Shown one piece after another: positions 3,029 to 22,063 of a stretch of 25,189 bases of DNA. A program made the translations under genes and the position numbers. The notes beneath the pieces were generated by a model, which worked only from the letters and a program-made list of their open reading frames with translations, was not told where the DNA came from and did no database searches. The stretch lies in assembly GCA_000182565.2 (NCBI GenBank), contig KQ257465.1. One strand, given 5' to 3'. Source of the DNA: Spizellomyces punctatus DAOM BR117 (taxonomy: Eukaryota). How positions within the stretch are numbered: the first letter of the stretch is position 1; each line of letters opens with the position of its first letter.

Positions 3029-3205
3029 NNNNNNNNNNNNNNNNNNNNNNNNNNNNNNNNNNNNNNNNNNNNNNNNNNNNNNNNNNNNNNNNNNNNNNNN
3101 NNNNNNNNNNNNNNNNNNNNNNNNNNNNNNNNNNNNNNNNNNNNNNNNNNNNNNNNNNNNNNNNNNNNNNNNNNNNNNNNNNNNNNNNNNNNNNNNNNNN
3201 NNNNN
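3029..3205. other. Assembly gap (run of N)
   Basis: 177 consecutive N. Confidence 1.
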
Positions 3206-3341
3206 ACCCGTTGTACCTAAAGGTTTCCAGGAGCGATGCAAAATGATGTCCCTTCATAACTCGCTGTTTACACATGCGTTCGATTTGCCTTGTGGTGATC
3301 CGGATGGGCGAACAATTGTTCGCCATTTTTCGGAAACTATC

Positions 3342-4974
3342 TTACGATGAAGAGTGGATTCTCGGATACTGTTTCCAAACAACATAATCAGATGGAATGG
3401 CCCCAGATCGCTTGCCGTGCTCGTCCCGATCATAGATTTTAGCAACCACAAAAAACCCGTCTTTGTGGGAGGAATCGTAGGGGATGTCGAAGTAAAGCCT
3501 TTGCCTGTGCATAGGCTCTATGATCTGGCATCTTCTCCGGCGTATATTTGGGCTGAAAAGCACGGTGCCGTCCACGGTTGGAAACAGCATGGGGGCAGCG
3601 GGACTTTCGTATTCGTCATCGTCCTCGTCGTCCCCGTCATCAAATGACTTTTCATCCTCCAAACCAAACGGATCTTCAATCGTGGCAACTTGTTGTAGAG
3701 AAATAAGATCGAATACTGTAATGTTTTCTGACGAGTGAACGAATAAATGTGTTCGCGTCATGTGATACCCATTATCGGGGGGTAGTTGAATGCGATGCTC
3801 TGGATGAACCAATGCGTACTCGTCAGACTCGGCAATAAGGTAATTATCGGCGATGCGAACCAGACGAAAAATGTCCTCTCCGTCAGCATCTTGAGTAACG
3901 TATCCCAGCATTTTCTCGTTGAATGCAGCGGGTGTGGCAGATGGTACTTGAAAGAGCTTCCGAAGATAGTATGTTGGTGGACCGGAGGGAGACGGCGGCG
4001 TGTCTGATGCAGAGACAGCTTCGCCGGGAGTGATAGGGTTGCCGACTATTTCCCACACGTCCAGCGGGCCCAATTGAGTGTCCCGTCTACGAGTTACACA
4101 TATTCGTCCACAAACGCTTGCAAACGTGTTGGCCGCCGTGTTGATTTTGTGAGACCAGCTAGAGGCATGGACCAGGTATTCCTGCCCTCTCATATCGTCA
4201 AGTACGAAAAAGGGGCTCGCCAGAGACGGTACTAGCGTGGTCACCGGAGTGTGTCGTACAGATCGGGATAGCTCCGCTAGATTCAGCTGCCATGTTTTTG
4301 TAGCTGAGATAGCATGGCAGAATGCCCGACGACACAAAAGAGTGAAGGGCCTTTCAGCTTCAGCTTTAAAAGAAAAAGAACCGAAGTGACCTCAGCGGCT
4401 TACGCTCAAAAGGGTATGATGTATGCACTACGGAGCTGCCCACAACATGGAAGCGAGCATGCGAGTCTTCCACCGGCTGACGATGAAACGCTCCGACGCA
4501 CGTTACTGCCTTTCCACACGGGCCCGAAACGGGAGGTAAATTCTTTTTGCATACACCAGTATGAGTGGGAAGTGGGGTCTCCGGCCAAGGACGCGACCAA
4601 GCACCGGAAGACAACACAAGATCCCTCCATGTCTCGTTGACGTCGTAGAGATCCGGGGCAGTGCCGGGAAAGAAGGTAATGTGCAAGAGACGTTTCCAAA
4701 TGTGAGCTTGACCAACGGGCCCGCGGATCAGCCCACACCAGCTCACGGAAACCTGTTCACAGACAAGCAGATCTGACCAGCTGCAGAAAGCAAAGATCCG
4801 GAGTAGCACATCTGTGGAGCTCACTACCGCCTGCCCTTGCCCTTTTCTTGACCCCATTGTTGAATCGAATCGAAAGTGCGGTTTGAGAAGAGTGTGCGGT
4901 GTGTTTCCCGCGGTCTCATTCTGTGTCATAGCTCCAGCTTTAGATAGATGAAGACCGTCGGGTCCGCTGTGCAT
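3342..4974 (-). CDS. F-box domain protein
   Basis: ORF 4366-4974 has the F-box pattern TDVLLRIFAFCSWSDLLVCEQVSVSW...IWK. It is followed on the same strand by the beta-rich ORF 3342-4337, probably joined by a short intron near 4350-4390. The start codon is uncertain (4974 or 4857). Confidence 0.75.
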
Positions 4975-5580: not shown

Positions 5581-8500
5581 TCAGACCTCAGAGTCATCTA
5601 ATGTGCTCTTAGCTGCTTTGCCGTTCTCGGCAAAACCACTGATACGACTCAAAGACCCAGGCCCATGCACCTTGGGAATTACCTTGTTCGATTTTTCGCT
5701 CTGATTTGTTACAGAACCGGGATTGCTTGATGCGGGTCTGTTAGCCCTACTATTGGGAATCACATCGGATGTACGACGGCAAAGTTTGGCGATCAACGTG
5801 GCCCATTCCTCCAGTTCTTGCGCTGATGGGACTCGGACGGTAACACTCGAGGCTGGATCAGTGGAATGGCGGAGGCGGAGGGTGTAAATGCCCTCGGACT
5901 CTTCGACTTGGGTGGAGAACTCGTAAGTTAAAAGTGGAAAGTAGCGACACGTCTGGAATTGGGGGCGAGGGGGTGTTAGATAGCTTAACTCCAGGACATG
6001 AAACTATCGTACCGTTGCTGCATGCTTCTTTGCACCTCCGGCGAGCAGTGCAATAGCTTTATCTGCATAGACAATAAGTGTCCTTTCGGCCCAGAAGGAA
6101 ACCATTGATTGACGATCAGACACCCAAACTTTCCCGTACTTGGTCTAACATTTGAACCGTGAGCGCCGAGGTAGGTTTAAGGTAGAAAACGACAATGCAG
6201 CCTACCGCCGTTTTGGAAACCGAGTTAACCGCCCAACTATCCGTCGTTGGATCCTTTTTCTTTCGAATTCCACTTCGCAAAAGATCATTGTTGCTCCTAT
6301 TCGCCTGGCGCGATTGCCACAGTTGAAATAATTTGTTTCCGAACAAGATACCAAGCGTGAGAAACACGGCTGCGTATGTGGCAATGACCTTGATGATCAA
6401 GTATCCAGAGTAGGAGATATCGAGAAGGAAGAGTATGGGGAGGACAAAAATCATGATTCCGCTGTAAGCGTAGAGAACGTACCCCAAAGATTTGCTCTCG
6501 CTGAACTGTTTAGGAAGGTTACGGGTGGCGAAGGCCATAAAGCCTCCGGCAATGAGCAGAAGGACTGTGTATCCGAAGAGGATGCCTGTGATTATAGAGG
6601 CGTTGGATGTCAGACGAAGCAGAGCATTGCAGCACAACAGGTATACGCTACCGCACCCTGCACAGCCCATTGTCGAGGACCCGTTGAGGAAGCGCAGAAA
6701 GCCCGGGACTCTACCAAACTGGGGCTAATGATATTGTAAACTTCTTTCTGTGGACGCGGTGGGTCTACAATGGTCCATACTAGAACAATGACCTAATTGC
6801 AGCAATCGTTACTCCTACATCAACAGCTGGCCGACCCTGCATTTTTGGCGACGTACCACATAAATGCCAGCTACAGTGGCGAGCCAGGAAAACATGTGCT
6901 TGTTTGTGGTACCGATCTTTCTTGCGCCTTGTCTCCTGAAGATTGCGAAAAGACGGAAAGTTTTTACAAGCAAACTGCCTAGAACGAGACCCAGGCCACA
7001 AGGGATGAGCCAGGCAGCAGCAACGCAAGCCGCCTGAGATGGTTCTCCCAGGAGAGTTACTGGGTAGAAGGTGCCAGTCAAAATACCGATGAGTGTAGTG
7101 GCTAAAATTGGCGGACTGTTTGCCTGTTCGTTCGCCGAAACAGAGTGGGTGAGACGTGCTGAACGGCTCATCAATGACTCGGCCCACCTTGAAAATTGGG
7201 TTACTCCATTCGTTCGCCAAGATAACCATCACTAATAAAATAGCAAGCACAGCAATGGCACACAGAACAATAGTAAAGGTACCCATCCCGTCATGGACAT
7301 CGACCGTGGTCAACAGCGTGGTGACTTGCAATACATCCGAAGGCCTCATTGTACCCCCGTTGAAATATACGGGCTCCGCATAACGTGTGACGTAAGTGGC
7401 CTTTTCCCCTGCCTTATCCCATGTGCCAAACGGAATCCAGGAGTCAGTACCATAATCATAGTATAATATATCCATGGCTGCAAGTCGGTCGCCGTATTCA
7501 TCCAGTGCCAGCGAGCCGGTGACACCTTGTTTCTCCGGAAAGGAGAAATCTTCTGGAACAGTAAACCTAAATCCACTGGTGTGTATATCAGCGAGATCCG
7601 AGAAGGTGACTGTGTTACTTTTCAGAAGCTTGTCAAAGCCGTAGACCATCATCTCGAGACTATTAAGGAGAAGCGATTGATTAAGAACCGGGCATTGTCA
7701 TTCAGATGAGAGGAAATGTACCAGCCGGCGAAAAACATAGCATAGCTCGTGGGAGATGCCGACATATCGCCATTGGCATATTCCATTTGCCAGGCAGGAA
7801 GAAAGGTATTCTTATAAATGTCTCCGGAAGCTTCGCGAGGGTAAGGCTGCCAAACACCGTGCCATAGTCGAAGCTCAGCAGGTTCAAGGCCGCCCGCATC
7901 TGGGTTGTTCGGATCCATAGCATGGATAAGAGACGGATCACTGTACGCAATCCACTGATAGTCGGTAGACACCATTCCACGTTTCTCGGCCTCTTTCAGA
8001 ATACCCGTCAACCCCTCAGGGGCGCCGAAATAGACCAGAACCGTCGCAGCAGACTCAATCACTTTGCTGACGAGAAGGGAGAAGTCGTCATTGTCCGGAT
8101 AGAATGTCTGCACGGTGGCGATGTCAACCTTCATGAACTTCGCATACTCGATCGCCCTTGTAAGTAACCCCGTGCCCATGTTGTCAGTCGGAGCGATGAA
8201 ACCTATTTGGAGACGTTCAGCTTTGAAAATCAGTCATAATACATCATATCGCTTCCCCTTACTTACCCAACCGGGTCCAGGACGTGTTCAACACAAGGTT
8301 GATTGTCGCCTCAGCAGCCAAGTTATCATTCGGAATGGTACGAAAGAAGTTGGGATAATCATTCCTGCTCGACAGCCCAGCATTCGCGGACGAACCATCG
8401 CAAACAGGCATTCCGAAAAAGTTTGCCGCCGCAGCCAGACCCTTTGTGGCATCAGAGTATCCGGCACCGATGACTGCCGTTACTCCATCAATCAAGGCCA

Positions 8501-10746: not shown

Positions 10747-11266
10747 AAAGTTCTTATTCTTAGTGCGGGGTTACAAATGCATTCTAATCTACTATTACTA
10801 CCATATCCTATCATATGTAACCCAACTAGAAAGCATGAGTGTGTTGATGCGGGTTCAAGTCTAGGAAACCTTGCAAATGCGTTGCTCGTGTCAGGAATGC
10901 CTGGAAAGCCGAACCCACGCCCGCAGAGTTTGTAAATACAAATCGGTAGCTTTTGGGGAATCTCTCGGAAAACAGAGATCCATCAAAGAGCGCCACATTA
11001 CTTGTGTAACTGTGGAAATTTTCCGGTGGCCTAGCCGTCTGACTGGATGCCCAAGCCTGCGCTGGCTGCCTTGTGCGTGGCCTCCTGCATTGCCTGGCTG
11101 GAACGGATGGATATATTTTCGATTTGCTTTTGATTATCAGAATAATACTGGGCTCTCCATGCTGTACAGGCACATCTTTCAGCAGGGTGTTTCTCGTGCA
11201 CAATCGTCATACCAGAAAAGATACACTACGCTGCCACAACTCAATACTACACCGCCGACGCCAACC

Positions 11267-11866
11267 ATGTCCAATCTCTCCCGATCACATCCTCACATTA
11301 CAGCATTTACTCTTCATCCATTACTGACTTCAAATGAATGCCGATCACTCATTGCTTACACAGAATCCAAAGGCTACATTCCAGCCCTGCTAAATAACGG
11401 CACAGGAGCAGAAAAATACGCCCCAAACATTCGAAAATCCTCGCGATGCATCATCGACTCCTGCGAATTATCAACCCAGATCTGGTCTCGAATCCAACCT
11501 TTTCTGCAAAACAACATTCCACTGAACATAGATAAGAACAGTCTATCACTCAATCCTCGCTTGCGGTTCCTAAAATATCAGCCCAAGGATTTTTTTCTGC
11601 GGCATCGGGACGGATCTCATGTGTCTCCCTCGGGTGCAGTTTCCAAGTATACTCTGCAAATTTGGTTGACTGATGCTTCCGAATATCATGGTGGACAGAC
11701 AGCATTTTGGTTTGGGAAAGGGAGAGAGAGGGAGATGGTTGAAGTTGTTGGAAAAGTTGGAATGGCGGTGGTTTTTGAGCAAGAGGTTCTGCATGAGGGA
11801 AGAGAGGTGGAGATAGGATGTAAATTTGTGGTTAGGACGGATATCATGGTTGGGGATTGTGTATAG
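11267..11866 (+). CDS. 2OG-Fe(II) oxygenase (prolyl-4-hydroxylase-like), intronless
   Basis: LLTSNECRSLI...RKSSRCIID...LNPRLRFLKY...FLRHRDG (HxD), GGQTAF, VLHEG (distal His), KFVVRTD. ATG 11267 is in frame with ORF 10871-11866. Confidence 0.9.
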   Translation: MSNLSRSHPHITAFTLHPLLTSNECRSLIAYTESKGYIPALLNNGTGAEKYAPNIRKSSRCIIDSCELSTQIWSRIQPFLQNNIPLNIDKNSLSLNPRLRFLKYQPKDFFLRHRDGSHVSPSGAVSKYTLQIWLTDASEYHGGQTAFWFGKGREREMVEVVGKVGMAVVFEQEVLHEGREVEIGCKFVVRTDIMVGDCV

Positions 11867-17263: not shown

Positions 17264-18218
17264 ATGCACGATATCTGGCTCGGTAGGTCGCATTCTGTCC
17301 TCAATGAGGGTAACAAGGCTACTCATTCACTGTGTTCTGGCATTTTGCCAGGAATCAAAACCATCATCCTTTACCAACCGCTGCCCGCGCAGCGCAATAC
17401 ATAGATGATTCTGCTGACTACGACCAATGGGCAGCCGCGCACGCAGCTTTGGCTGGGAACTACACATCGTTTCGCGCTGCGTACGCAGCCGCCAGAGGAA
17501 GGGCGACCAGCGTACGTCTCGATAAAGTTGGGTGGCCCGCCTAACGTCGATCCAGTCAATTTGACTTTTGCGGCTCCGCCGCCACAGCCAGCAAGAACTA
17601 TGGTATTGGAACGACACCGAACGGCGTCGTTTCTTTCCGCGACCGCGTCCCTCTCGCCCGCGGTTGCGGGCGGACCCCAACAGTTCGTGGTGAATTTGAC
17701 CATAACTGGCGACGACGCCGTTCGTCGGGCAGGCGGAAAAGATAACGTCCCAGCATTCTCCTCCACCCTCGCACGGTGGCTGATCAATCAGCGTTGGGAC
17801 TTCGTATATTCACAAGGACCGTCGCCGTTGAATATGGTCGGACCCGGAGTGGCGCCGATTAATCTGGTCTCACCCCCTCCGCCTCAGTTTGGGTTGCCAG
17901 TTGGGAAGGGCCGTGTCTTATACATACCCAAGCTTAACACTAACCCAATTTTTTGGACTCGAAGCTGCTCAGCAGCCCGCCCCAGGTGAATGCCTCACAA
18001 AGTCCATTGCTCGTGTTGCCGTACTAAACCAGAATATGTGCACTTGGCAGCCGCTGCCATTGCAGCTGCTCCGCAGCCGGCTCTCGGTGAGTGCCTCAGA
18101 ACGTCCATTGCTTGTGTTGCTTGTGTTGCTTGTGTTGCGTCCCTATGCTATGAGCATGGCGTACTAAACTGAAGGTGAACAAGAAGAAGGGGAAGCTCCC
18201 GCGGAGCCAGCAGAATAG
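17264..18218 (+). pseudogene. Pro/Ala-rich unknown protein gene with microexons; in-frame stop
   Basis: ATG 17264 and intron 17283-17351 splice in frame to TAG 17402-17404, then ORF 17405. Microexons 17965-17985 and 18051-18086, last exon 18175-18218. The donor of the intron ending at 17964 is not clear. Confidence 0.55.
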
Positions 18219-18525
18219 GATGTGCTCCGTCGGAGCGGATGTAAGCTGTCGCTATGCATCGGAAATAGCAGATCCAGCAAGGAAATATAGGAAAGAAAGG
18301 AAATAGCAAGGAAATATCGAATAGAAAATGGTGTTTTTTTAGTTTTTTTTTGCAATAAATTGATTGCTGTGCCATTTGTCCTGATCCAATTGATACCACT
18401 GCAATGTTGCAACCCGACGTACCTACAAATTGACCCTGTTTTCCGCTACGTTTCAACATAGCATATACTGGTTGAACATGCTTTAAAAATGCAGCAAAAC
18501 AGGCGGGGTATTTTTCTATGCATCT

Positions 18526-18610
18526 AATGATAATTTCGTATAGTGCGGAGCCGATGGGCATTGGCACTAGCGCACCAGGGATTGAACCGGCGACAACCGG
18601 TTCGGAAAAG
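18526..18610 (-). ncRNA. Fanzor omega-RNA: 70-nt scaffold (18610-18541) plus flank-derived guide (from 18540 downward; guide length assumed)
   Basis: The minus strand reads CTTTTCCGAACCGGTTGTCGCCGGTTCAATCCCTGGTGCGCTAGTGCCAATGCCCATCGGCTCCGCACTA|TACGAAATTATCATT and starts right after the ORF stop. GAACCGGT can pair with ATCGGCTC, and GTGCG or TAGTGC with the terminal CGCACTA. It closely resembles the Spizellomyces punctatus SpuFz1 scaffold as I recall it (not verified by alignment). Confidence 0.82.
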
Positions 18611-19625
18611 CTAATCTAACCAATCTACGCTACGCTCGGCTGGAACACTCCTCCTGCTGAACACTTCTGGTCTACAGTGCCCATCCAACATTGATCTCAC
18701 AATCATTAGCATATTGCAGGTGCTCAGCGTATCTCGATTCTAGTAGCGCATCGTCCAGGCTTGCTGCAAACAGTTAGGGTTGGTACAACCCAGCAATCCG
18801 TGGACTTTTTCAATCTTGCCTTCACGTTGCTGCCAAGGTCTTGAATGAGGTCATGTTTTGAAGCCTTTCTCAACGTCAGAGGATGACAGTGAGGGCAGAC
18901 AGATGAGGTTTTATACTCGTCGAGCAGGAAACAATCAATGTGGTAGTGCTTGAAAACCGTGCGCCAACCTTTTGTTTTTGATGACATCTGAAATCTCGCA
19001 GCATCACTCCAATCACCCATCACAATGTTAAAGTTTTCACTGTACTTGTTGTGCATGTTGGATATGAGGTTTGACTTGCTCTTCTGACGGTTTATAAATG
19101 CATGCCACTTCCACTGCGTGTGGGCAGGATGTGAGTAGAACTCCTTTTGACAATCCGAATTTGCATGGCAAATGAGAAGGTAGTGAGTAAAGTCCATGAG
19201 GTTCATCATCTTCTGAGATGGTATTCGTGACTCTATGTGATCAATTCCCGCTTTCTTCGTCATCTGCTGCCATTGCCTTTGCTGTCAACGGCTTCCAGTC
19301 TCCATGGCTCGTTGGTTGGTGGTGTAGCAAAATGTCGTACCACTGCTGTCTTGGCAGTAGAGAATGTCGCACTTGTTTGGGTCAACAACAATGATGTTCT
19401 CTGCTACTCGACAAGCAGACAAGTTTTTCTCCATGTATTGTGCTTTAACTTTGTCCTCTAAACTCTTTGCTGACTTTCTTGCTCCACGCTTTCCATACTT
19501 GTCGGCATCAGGGTGTTTCAAGTAAACTGACACCGAGGTACCATCTGTCATGATCGAGCCTTCAAAACACATTCCATGACGAGATCTAAAGGCTTTGATA
19601 CTTAGATTACAGACGCGCAAGTGAC
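18541..19625 (-). mobile_element. 5'-truncated Fanzor1-encoding transposon remnant (right end at ~18541)
   Basis: A decayed Fanzor ORF is immediately followed by the omega-RNA scaffold ending CGGCTCCGCACTA, then unrelated AT-rich flank. No matching left end was seen in the window. Confidence 0.85.
18611..19625 (-). pseudogene. Fanzor1 (TnpB-derived RNA-guided RuvC nuclease), C-terminal half, inactivated
   Basis: Across frames: FEGSIMTDGTSVSV, RuvC-I IIVVDPNK, WKWHAFINRQKS, VMGDWS, RuvC-II LLDEYKTSSVCPHC, zinc-finger partner VHGLLGCTNPNC, RuvC-III Y*NRDTLSTCNM, RPEVFSR, stop 18611-18613. Contains internal stops and frameshifts. Confidence 0.92.
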
Positions 19626-19660
19626 CAGGAATCACAGGACAAAGCAAACCACCAGTGCAT

Positions 19661-19714
19661 TCATGTAAAAGTATCAAAGATAATTTGTCATGTAAAAGTA
19701 TCAAAGATAATTTG
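19661..19714. repeat. Perfect 27-bp tandem duplication near the Fanzor truncation junction
   Basis: tcatgtaaaagtatcaaagataatttg x2 (19661-19687, 19688-19714). Confidence 0.95.
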
Positions 19715-19791
19715 GCCAATATCTACCACAGGACAGTTTTTCAAACAACACGATGGCGCCATCACAAAATCTTTGTACATATCTACAACGG

Positions 19792-22063
19792 CTAACCTTG
19801 GCTTCGACGACGCTTTTCCTTCGTCTTCGTCTCCGGAGTGAGCGCATCGGGAAAGACTTGGCGTAGGTCTCGAAGAAGTCCATGTTTATCAGGAGTAATG
19901 GGGTAGTTGGGCGCATCTTGAAAGGTATGGCGGGCCCTTTGACTGCAAAGACGCTCTCCACTCGCTTTCAAAATCTCTTTCAAGCGGCGAAAACCAGCAA
20001 TGCAGCGAGGGAGATTTCCAACATTTTCCAATGAATTAACAATCGGGATCTTGCCTAGTTCGACGCAGAAACACAAGCCTTCATAAATCTGGACATTATA
20101 TATGTGGAAGACTGCGCCGTCTTGGTGTTTGTGTGTCAGTAAAAGAATCTCCAGAGGCAAGATCATGTAGAAATACCTGGTGCAATTGCGGTAATCAGCT
20201 GCAGAGGAGTTTGCCCCCAGTCGTATTCTAACATATCTTTCTTCACTAATTTCATTGCACGTTCCAGCCCATCAGCTAACTGCAAGTTTCGCTGGGTACT
20301 GGTTGCATGGGGTGACTTCAGTTCCGCAACAAGGACAATGCGATCCATAGTTTTGATAGTGATATCTGGATGCTTTCTGTCATTCATTACAGTGTCGCTG
20401 ACAGAAGCATCAAAGATAAGTGTTACTTAGCATGAAAATTGGGGTGGATGAACTTACATATATAGCTTCCATCTCGGAGATAATAGACGGCTGAAGTGTG
20501 GAGTGACATATTTGCCAGTATATGACGGTTCGTGCTCAAAGGCTGGAGCGTCGGCGCCGACATAAGGATATCTAGCAAAACCATTCAGTATAAAGCTTCC
20601 GCATGTATGCTACACACTTCACTGACATGGCTTCGAGTGGTATTGCTTCATCCCTAGCTAGTTCGGAGAATGTCATATCGTCAGGGGAATCTTCTGTCTC
20701 TTCCTCGACAAGCTTCCTAATTTCGAACTTGTGTGTGGCCGCTGCTATAGCCGGTGGCGCCACCGCAGCTACGGCATCCCAAAGAGTCTCATGGGCAATA
20801 CTATGGTAGAGTTTGGCCCAGTTTCTAGTATCCAAATATTTCTCATATGGCTCCGGAAGATGCCGGGTGACTAAAATACCACCTTTCAATGTACTATACA
20901 CAGTATAAGCATCTACATGGGGTACTGTCATTAGAACGGACTGATTAAATTTTTGATCGCCTTCCGGTTTCTGCATGTCCAATAAAACATCACTCAAAAC
21001 TTGGCGTATCAACTGCGAACAATTGATATTTGCAACAATCACCTACAGAATTATAATTTTAACTGCTGTATCATTTCGAAGAAAAGGGGAATAACTTGGG
21101 AACTTACATCATGCTCCAATTTTAGATTCGCTCCTTTCAATACCTCTTGCAGGCCCGCAATCTCCTCTGGCGGAACCGATCCCTCTTGCAGCACCGTGAT
21201 CTCTTCGAGCGGAACAAATTCTTCTTCCAGCCCGGTCGGCTCCGGACCAGCAGTATCTTCTTCGAGCAAGAGTCTTGCTTTTTTGCGTTTATGGGAATCC
21301 AGGGAACACTGGTTATCAGGCTTGTCGACGATTTTCACGAGCGTTTGATGTGCCTCTGAAGCTGCAAAAGGGCAAGATTCCTGTGTGCATTGATTAGCTG
21401 ATCCACTCTATTCTGTTCTCGATGCTGCTTTTCTTGGATTTAGCAGCGGATCTTCTGGCGATAAGAAAAGAATTTGTCTCATGTTCCGGGCTGAAAAAAT
21501 ATGTGTAAGTCGCCTACGTGACAATTCTTGCTCGCACACACACAGTATGATTCTTCGAAACCTTCCTTCAATCACAATGTACCGAGATAGCCTAGCTGGG
21601 ACAGCTCTCGCTTCATCGGCGGAGGTTGAATCCCTCGGAGAGGGGATTTCACTCCCAACCATATCTGATGGATCTTCTGCATCATGGTCCCATTGTGACA
21701 TTGGGAAGGTTTAAGACCGGGATAGCTTAGCTGGGATAGCTCTTGCTTCACTGGCAGACTCGTGCACATCTGCAACAGGAGTACCGAGCCAGGGGTGACC
21801 CCCAATCGTCGTGATGTGCAAACTGCAAAACTGCCGACACGCAGGCTCTATGTGCAGACTACAAACAAACTAAAAACGAAAAGGAAACTCACTCCTTTCA
21901 AATTGGCAAGTTGCAAGTAATGCTTCTGTTGTCTTGCTAATCGGGTTTCCGGAAAGCCAGCCAAGAGCTCCTCTATGCGAGCCACCCAGTCTTCCCAGCC
22001 GGCATCCGGGTTTTTCTCAACAAAATCTTCGATTACAGGCTGCGGCGGGAGATAGTTCCTCAT
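19792..22063 (-). pseudogene. PD-(D/E)xK restriction-endonuclease-fold protein (Crinkler/CR-REase-like architecture), disrupted
   Basis: Short helical N-terminal exon (21893-22063), acidic/basic linker, and a C-terminal domain with RKHPDITIK...VLVAELKS then FCVELGKIPI...RRLKEIL. In-frame TAA at ~21711-21713 and a one-base shift at ~20577-20580 (T run). Confidence 0.65.

Follow-up and report, generated by a model that had tools for sequence, protein, structure and literature searches.

Is a Fanzor1 copy with a dead protein and an intact right end still a source of guide RNA, or is it a fossil? This question is raised by a locus on contig KQ257465.1 of the chytrid fungus Spizellomyces punctatus DAOM BR117 (GenBank assembly GCA_000182565.2). 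The whole stretch of DNA analysed, 25,189 nucleotides long, is called the window here. An earlier note, made from the letters alone, described a Fanzor1 RNA-guided nuclease locus with a dead protein and a recognisable omega-RNA, and proposed that this copy could supply a guide in trans. The name Fanzor was reportedly given in a 2013 paper, and a structural paper on Fanzor is said to date from 2024.

The note also supposed that this genome hosts an SpuFz1-like family. This is an understatement: S. punctatus DAOM BR117 is the strain of the published family (Saito et al. 2023, PMC10432273). In the parts of that paper and its supplement used here, 42 Fz loci, full-length (19) or partial, and 134 ghost loci are reported. 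The Spu-1 element, a transposon-like unit that carries SpuFz1 together with its omega-RNA, has 30-nt inverted repeats; the left one is preceded by CA, and the target motif is CATA. The omega-RNA of SpuFz1 consists of a 75-nt scaffold and a 14-15-nt guide beyond it. Ghost omega-RNAs are active with SpuFz1, and the extra guide loci are suggested there to act in trans. All proposals of the earlier note are thus already in print for this genome, as far as these parts of PMC10432273 go.

The descent of the locus is clear from its protein remains. When SpuFz1 was searched against the window by tblastn, two collinear segments were found with a joint E value of 5e-144. Residues 304-551 correspond to 19620-18886 in frame -2 (181/248 identical, 73%) and residues 553-636 to 18886-18638 in frame -1 (72/85 identical, 85%). 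Similarity to known Fanzor proteins, on which the reading as Fanzor1 depends, was also examined with a 333-aa read-through translation. Among PDB chains (phmmer), it matches 8GKH (SpuFz1) with E 1.3e-120, Parasitella Fanzor1 with 1.9e-15, and Guillardia Fanzor1 with 3e-07. SPPG_07727 (P0004, 638 aa) matches 8GKH at E 0 and is the SpuFz1 protein. The read-through translation is identical to SpuFz1 at 252 of 326 aligned residues (77%). The 16 best relatives of the longest open piece are all Fanzor-like, and 13 of them are named S. punctatus DAOM BR117, with 57-76% identity. The other three are environmental sequences, and Fimicolochytrium relatives are more distant.

The active-site residues are also kept. 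D383, N385, E541, and D606 of RuvC are all retained in the read-through translation, in the minus-strand motifs VVDPN (D383), LLDEYKTS (E541), and NRD (D606). Both pairs of zinc-finger cysteines, CPHC (C548/C551) and CTNPNC, remain, with the frameshift lying between the two pairs. The RuvC and cysteine motifs that the note had read across stops and frameshifts were therefore all found again. Of 77 invariant columns taken from an 11-member family alignment, 71 are kept and six are lost. A Pfam scan gave 0 families for the remnant fragments, and the same Pfam copy gives 0 for SpuFz1 itself. The protein relatives of the remnant carry the precomputed label PF26935, a family that this Pfam copy did not report.

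The gene is broken in many places (Table 1). A full-length Fanzor1 ORF has about 600-640 aa; what is found here is residues 304-636 only, with three stops and three indels. The indels were placed by visual comparison with the DNA of SPPG_02855, a close paralog. The 1-nt deletion removes the normal stop, and therefore the frame continues to the TAG that abuts the scaffold. In sequencing run X2, one contig has the letter that is missing here. Among the residues that PMC10432273 names as RNA contacts in the text used here, five are altered: R387C, R419Q, R531H, R550H, and R572Q. Judged by its sequence, the remnant is a member of Fanzor1 (SpuFz1 family) by descent, not a working one. With tblastn, phmmer, the lesions, and the scaffold fold (below) in agreement, the description as a Fanzor1 locus with a dead protein and a recognisable omega-RNA stands.

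Table 1. Coordinates of the Fanzor1 remnant, its lesions, and the adjoining sequence in the window.
Feature	Position	Strand	Remark
Would-be guide, 15 nt	18526-18540	minus	TACGAAATTATCATT; flank directly past the right end
Right-end 30-nt inverted repeat of Spu-1 element	18541-18570	minus	28/30 identical to canonical SpuFz1; unique in the window
Omega-RNA scaffold, 70 nt	18541-18610	minus	stem-loop 1, linker AAUCCC, stem 2 closed by UGGUGCG...CGCACUA
TAG closing the shifted frame	18611-18613	minus	abuts the scaffold
1-nt deletion	between 18637 and 18636	minus	normal stop gone
Fanzor1 pseudogene	18638-19620	minus	SpuFz1 residues 304-636; part of WED, RuvC, NUC/zinc finger
In-frame TAG	18740-18742	minus	at W603
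In-frame TGA	18851-18853	minus	at R564
2-nt insertion (frameshift)	18884-18885	minus	directly past CPHC; frame change between the tblastn segments
9-nt deletion	between 19000 and 18999	minus	takes out G511-T513
In-frame TGA	19285-19287	minus	at R415
Junction zone	19621-19722	minus	weak, doubtful homology to residues ~257-303 of some paralogs
Host gene SPPG_07653, 3' exons	19795-21407	minus (same strand as remnant)	adjoins the remnant upstream

Annotated paralogs carry a comparable trace of frameshifting. Three S. punctatus proteins of 580-585 aa (P0001, P0003, and P0013) end in ...DCWVVPTLTVCSKPGRCATGIEIR, which reproduces the out-of-frame tail of the ORF at 18724-19284. Thus these proteins are frameshifted Fanzor genes misannotated past the shift. 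Their annotation is without the third RuvC aspartate.

The remnant is also truncated. No homology to residues 1-303 of SpuFz1 was found within the 25-kb window by a deliberately loose tblastn search (best E 0.83), and the 30-nt right-end repeat has no partner at three or fewer mismatches within the window. Spu-1 is defined by 30-nt inverted repeats at both ends; here only the right one is found. The promoter region and the first ~300 codons are therefore missing from the window together with the left repeat. The account in the earlier note is correct for the features of the remnant, but it overlooked this loss of the N-terminal ~300 codons and of the left end. Weak alignments to paralogs extend as far as 19722; they are poor and cross a 27-nt tandem duplication. 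This duplication is perfect (TCATGTAAAAGTATCAAAGATAATTTG twice, 19661-19714) and lies exactly between the 3' flank of the host gene and the start of the Fanzor homology. It may be a repair scar of the event that removed the left half of the element.

Upstream of the junction is an ordinary host gene. Its exon at 19795-20121 matches SPPG_07653 of S. punctatus DAOM BR117 (589 aa) with 100% identity, and an ortholog in Borealophlyctis nickersoniae shows 64%. The stop of SPPG_07653 is located ~70-170 nt upstream of the Fanzor remnant. Other neighbours in the window are host genes as well: a GH18 chitinase fragment (947-1552), a class-C receptor-like gene with 7tm_3 and ANF_receptor domains (6116-8233), and a 2OG-Fe(II) oxygenase (10865-11866). 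One ORF of the window has a 100% match as well as an 85% match in another Spizellomyces species, which agrees with the origin of the window given by the SPPG_07653 exon. On the other side, a few hundred bases past the right end of the remnant, two 57-nt direct repeats (84% alike, 101 nt apart, 17963-18140) adjoin a short run of CAAGCAACA-type repeats. An N run at ~3030-3230, seen as an X stretch in the ORF listing, is an assembly gap.

The missing half could have been parted from the remnant by a large insertion and could now lie beyond the 25-kb window, so that the element would be split and not truncated. Such a history has parallels, since PMC10432273 reports 11 Fz loci whose inverted repeats enclose further genes, and one 33.8-kb record of its supplement has only the N-terminal 232 codons annotated by the left end. 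Also, the window extends just 5.5 kb upstream of the remnant. However, what abuts the remnant is the 3' end of the intron-containing SPPG_07653 with its 64% ortholog, not a Ty3-type or other insert, and those 5.5 kb hold no N-terminal Fanzor homology. The tags SPPG_07651-07655 do not appear in the readable locus files of PMC10432273 either. A split element is therefore highly improbable, and the remnant is treated below as truncated.

The same search bears on whether this copy has been catalogued. Neither the tags SPPG_07651-07655 nor six 10-residue peptides of SPPG_07653 gave a match (0 each) in the eight readable supplementary files of PMC10432273; two PDF supplements lay outside the search. 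The supplementary records carry annotated flanks and the tags are absent from them, so the remnant is probably unlisted, and by this comparison of tags and peptides it may not be among the 42 published loci. A candidate Fz record on a guessed supercontig in the same supplement was rejected, as it is a different, 33.8-kb locus. This 'locus with Fz' in Supplementary Data 1 has 33,826 bp, with ~31 kb between its ends. It holds intron-poor genes of unknown function, one of ~4.3 kb and one coding for 667 aa with a GxxGKT motif, and its Fanzor annotation, at the left end, is confined to the first 232 codons. The record has the look of a large insertion or cargo.

While the left half of the element is gone, the right end is whole. 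By eye, against the supplementary GenBank text, the right-end repeat is 29/30 identical to the right end of SPPG_02855. The right-end 30-mer and a 25-nt stretch of stem-loop 1 each occur once in the window and not at all in 100 shuffles. Folding the scaffold yields stem 1, of 8 bp, and stem 2 (z = -2.95); none of 200 shuffled sequences reached an equally good fold. As the earlier note had it, the 70-nt scaffold directly follows the stop and runs into the flank that would provide the guide. The border between scaffold and guide, aligned by eye, is the same as in canonical SpuFz1. No second good match to the would-be guide exists in the window; the only other match has three mismatches, which 15 of 100 shuffles equal. 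A likeness of stem 1 to a tRNA T-arm was suspected by eye. It was dropped, as scans of the window gave 0 tRNAs and 0 Rfam families.

The scaffold can be compared with the published RNA position by position. The last 75 nt of the SpuFz1 locus in the Supplementary Data of PMC10432273 were taken as the canonical scaffold. The nucleotides that the paper names in the text used here fit this numbering: U16, G17, U18, C19, G20, G22, A29-C34, U35, and G37, as well as C40, G70, A72, A75, and the guide nucleotide U76. All comparisons with canonical and ghost scaffolds were made by eye. The remnant is identical to the canonical scaffold at 66 of 75 positions, with five deleted and four substituted; the changes are G1C, G10A, loss of G22, loss of 42-45 (4 nt), A57G, and C62U. 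A10 still pairs with U26. No change is seen in the linker AAUCCC or in the closing helix UGGUG/CACUA. The 4-nt deletion, A57G, and C62U all fall within C40-G70, the distal part of stem 2. This part is described in PMC10432273 as disordered, and it could be trimmed without loss of activity. The internal deletion and the change in the long stem had been seen correctly in the earlier note, but its worry that they may make the RNA non-functional is mostly misplaced, since C40-G70 is dispensable. The list of differences there was also incomplete: the loss of G22, G1C, and G10A, all in stem-loop 1, had been missed.

These three states are not private to the remnant. C1, A10, and the absence of G22 are all present in one ghost locus, while another ghost has G1 and G22; the states are therefore polymorphic in the family. 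The stem-loop 1 of the remnant is in the ghost state and is joined to an Fz-type stem 2. No indel is listed for the RNA reads across stem-loop 1. Conservation of 18541-18610 among copies, on which the note had made its reading depend, is found both with canonical SpuFz1 and, for the stem-loop 1 states, with a ghost. From this comparison the 70-nt scaffold, if made, would probably still bind SpuFz1. A point against its competence is that G22, which it lacks, is listed in PMC10432273 among the nucleotides in contact with the protein.

A scaffold that may be competent leads back to the opening question. The remnant could act like a ghost locus: its right end would be transcribed and processed, and an intact SpuFz1 encoded elsewhere would load the RNA with the guide TACGAAATTATCATT. 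The 134 ghost loci without protein, whose omega-RNAs work with SpuFz1 according to PMC10432273, are a precedent for such a donor. The parts of the scaffold that contact the protein differ from canonical only by G1C, G10A, and the lack of G22, all found in a ghost locus. Moreover, SPPG_07653 is located upstream on the same strand, and read-through from it could in principle reach the scaffold. Against this stand the missing left end and TATA-like-box region, as well as the RNA data.

Four sequencing runs were aligned on 18380-18979 (sampled words present 0.17-0.34). Run X5 consists of raw RNA reads, of which ~6% were read; it is an ordinary paired cDNA library with no small-RNA selection. Its depth reaches ~1,600-1,900 over 18580-18619, but 2,431 of 2,443 aligned reads match over only part of their length. 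The ends that do not match correspond to flanks of left ends, to canonical right ends that retain the extra 4 nt, and to flanks of the ghost type. Two positions tell the remnant from its paralogs. At 18559, the letter of the locus, C on the plus strand, is found in one of 157 X5 reads, against a paralog scaffold depth of ~1,900; at 18741, it is found in one of 15, and the other 14 show the letter of the intact paralog. In the guide bin, 18520-18539, one read direction has a depth of 3.85 and the other 0. In the flank (18380-18519), depth is 0 in all seven bins of X5. No read or contig in any of the four runs crosses from the scaffold into the guide or the flank past it, and the only flank signal in these runs is a trace of 0.63-2.51 at 18460-18519 in X2. 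Therefore X5 captures the scaffold RNAs of other loci and essentially none from the remnant.

X1 and X2 have contigs over the pseudogene body, and some of these are free of mismatches. At 18559 and 18741, all depth in these two runs carries the paralog letter, so their contigs do not show presence or transcription of the locus. Nothing aligned from run X7, whose kind was guessed as RNA; this is no proof of absence. First mates of X5 lie on the minus strand over the scaffold and the gene body. Upstream of the scaffold, X5 depth stays between 0 and 2.2 from 18820 to 18979; little read-through thus arrives from that side.

In one RNA library, of which ~6% was read, the locus appears not to be transcribed into omega-RNA. 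X5 would not reveal an omega-RNA that this locus made in small amounts or only under certain conditions. It is reported, in the part of PMC10432273 used here, that omega-RNA expression was observed at only four Fz loci. The claim that this copy supplies a guide in trans is hence unsupported, given one locus letter in 157 reads at 18559, no reads into the flank, and a lost left end with its TATA-like-box region. The remnant is quite unlikely to be a guide donor.

The X5 reads also say something about the family as a whole. Hundreds of them have in common with the locus only a 42-nt core, 18573-18614, which comprises stem-loop 1, the linker, and the start of stem 2. Reads that part before 18573 number 406 and those that part after 18614 number 1,075, with other sequences on both sides. 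The upstream loose ends of the 42-nt-core reads resemble a ghost-locus sequence. Therefore ghost-type scaffolds seem to be the most abundant class in X5.

The low depth upstream of the scaffold also bears on a use that needs no nuclease. By its position alone, ~70-170 nt past the stop of SPPG_07653 and on the same strand, the remnant or its structured RNA could have been taken over as part of the 3' UTR or as a terminator of the host gene. However, X5 has almost no depth over 18820-18979, and stops and indels have accumulated freely. The chance of such a co-option is practically negligible.

The best explanation is that the locus is a molecular fossil of a Spu-1 element. It is very probably a 5'-truncated, multiply broken copy of SpuFz1 with its right end whole, and it is apparently silent. 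An intact Spu-1 copy measures ~2.1 kb, and its nuclease gene is driven by a promoter close to the left inverted repeat. An RNA of ~90 nt is formed from the last ~75 nt of Spu-1 and 14-15 nt of flank; it loads into SpuFz1 and leads it to DNA that matches the flank beside a CATA motif. The remnant no longer has the left repeat, the promoter region, or the first ~300 codons, and stops and indels break the half-gene that remains. The truncation presumably arose by deletion or incomplete repair, and the loss of the promoter would be the reason for the silence. There is no sign of use, so the remnant is an ordinary genomic fossil.

A wider role for such fossils may be imagined. Promoter-less Fanzor remnants behind host genes might feed the omega-RNA pool by read-through, and the mixture of ghost and Fz parts in the scaffold might be a record of recombination or gene conversion. 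This is a speculative idea with little chance of being right. If read-through feeding were true, the catalogued loci would understate both the size and the fluidity of the guide repertoire of SpuFz1.

Relatives of the remnant were also looked for in metagenome contigs. A scan with a degenerate scaffold motif as an exact pattern gave 0 matches. A protein-profile scan gave four loci. In one of them (L003), with an Fz fragment 52% identical, the right end has a 7-bp stem 1, the linker, and a stem 2 closed by UGGUGCG...CGCACUA (z = -3.4). Aligned to the window, it preserves 7 of the 8 stem-1 pairs, and in two of these both partners have changed. This would independently confirm the two-stem design of the scaffold, as anecdotal support from one informative sequence. 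Two further loci (L001 and L002) are one locus in two metagenomes, with a similar 5' part of the scaffold. They were dropped as scaffold evidence: their right end could not be placed, and their folds (z -0.21 and +0.38) are no better than those of shuffles. L003 has another feature. A left-type inverted repeat (2849-2874) is found only 515 nt from the right repeat (3390-3415), and the last ~150 Fanzor codons and the complete scaffold lie between them. From this arrangement, 2849-3417 of L003 looks like a mini-element, and internal deletion of this kind would be a route to ghost-sized elements.

The consequence of these results for the biology of Fanzor is small. In the parts of PMC10432273 used here, the family, its RNA, target motif, and structure, as well as partial and guide-only loci, are all published for the S. 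punctatus genome, so the kind of locus is already known. What is added is a precise decay map of one SpuFz1 copy. In addition, the flanking tags are absent from the published locus files that could be read, so the tally of remnants in print may fall slightly short. Lastly, the scaffold changes that had caused concern sit where the RNA tolerates them.

How does the remnant compare with known systems? With the intact Spu-1/SpuFz1 elements (PMC10432273, PDB 8GKH) it shares the genome, the protein family, the right-end repeat, the layout of the omega-RNA, and the border between scaffold and guide, as far as these are given in the sources used. Unlike an intact Spu-1, it lacks the left repeat, the promoter region, and residues 1 to ~303, and it carries three stops, a 2-nt insertion, and 1-nt and 9-nt deletions. 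Its scaffold has 70 nt instead of the 75 nt of Spu-1, and the X5 data hold no locus-specific RNA from it. With the ghost Spu-1 loci it has in common that it is a guide-RNA module without a working nuclease gene, and it shows the same C1, A10, and missing G22. Ghost loci, however, are units of ~550 nt with both inverted repeats and a conserved interior of their own that includes a TATA-like box. The region of this box in intact and ghost copies is absent from the remnant. Ghost loci also have a different stem 2 and different repeats, whereas the remnant has an Fz-type stem 2 and repeat, half of a dead gene, and no left end.

The more distant comparison is with TnpB and its omega-RNA (reRNA) in IS200/IS605 elements such as ISDra2. 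Both systems have a RuvC nuclease and a guide RNA encoded at the right end of the element and extending into the flank. TnpB-type families often contain decayed and guide-only copies. To our knowledge, no TnpA partner is known for Spu-1. Unlike TnpB, the remnant derives from a eukaryotic Fanzor1, which has larger REC and RuvC parts, and the omega-RNA of SpuFz1, as described in the part of PMC10432273 used here, has neither a pseudoknot nor an overlap with the ORF.
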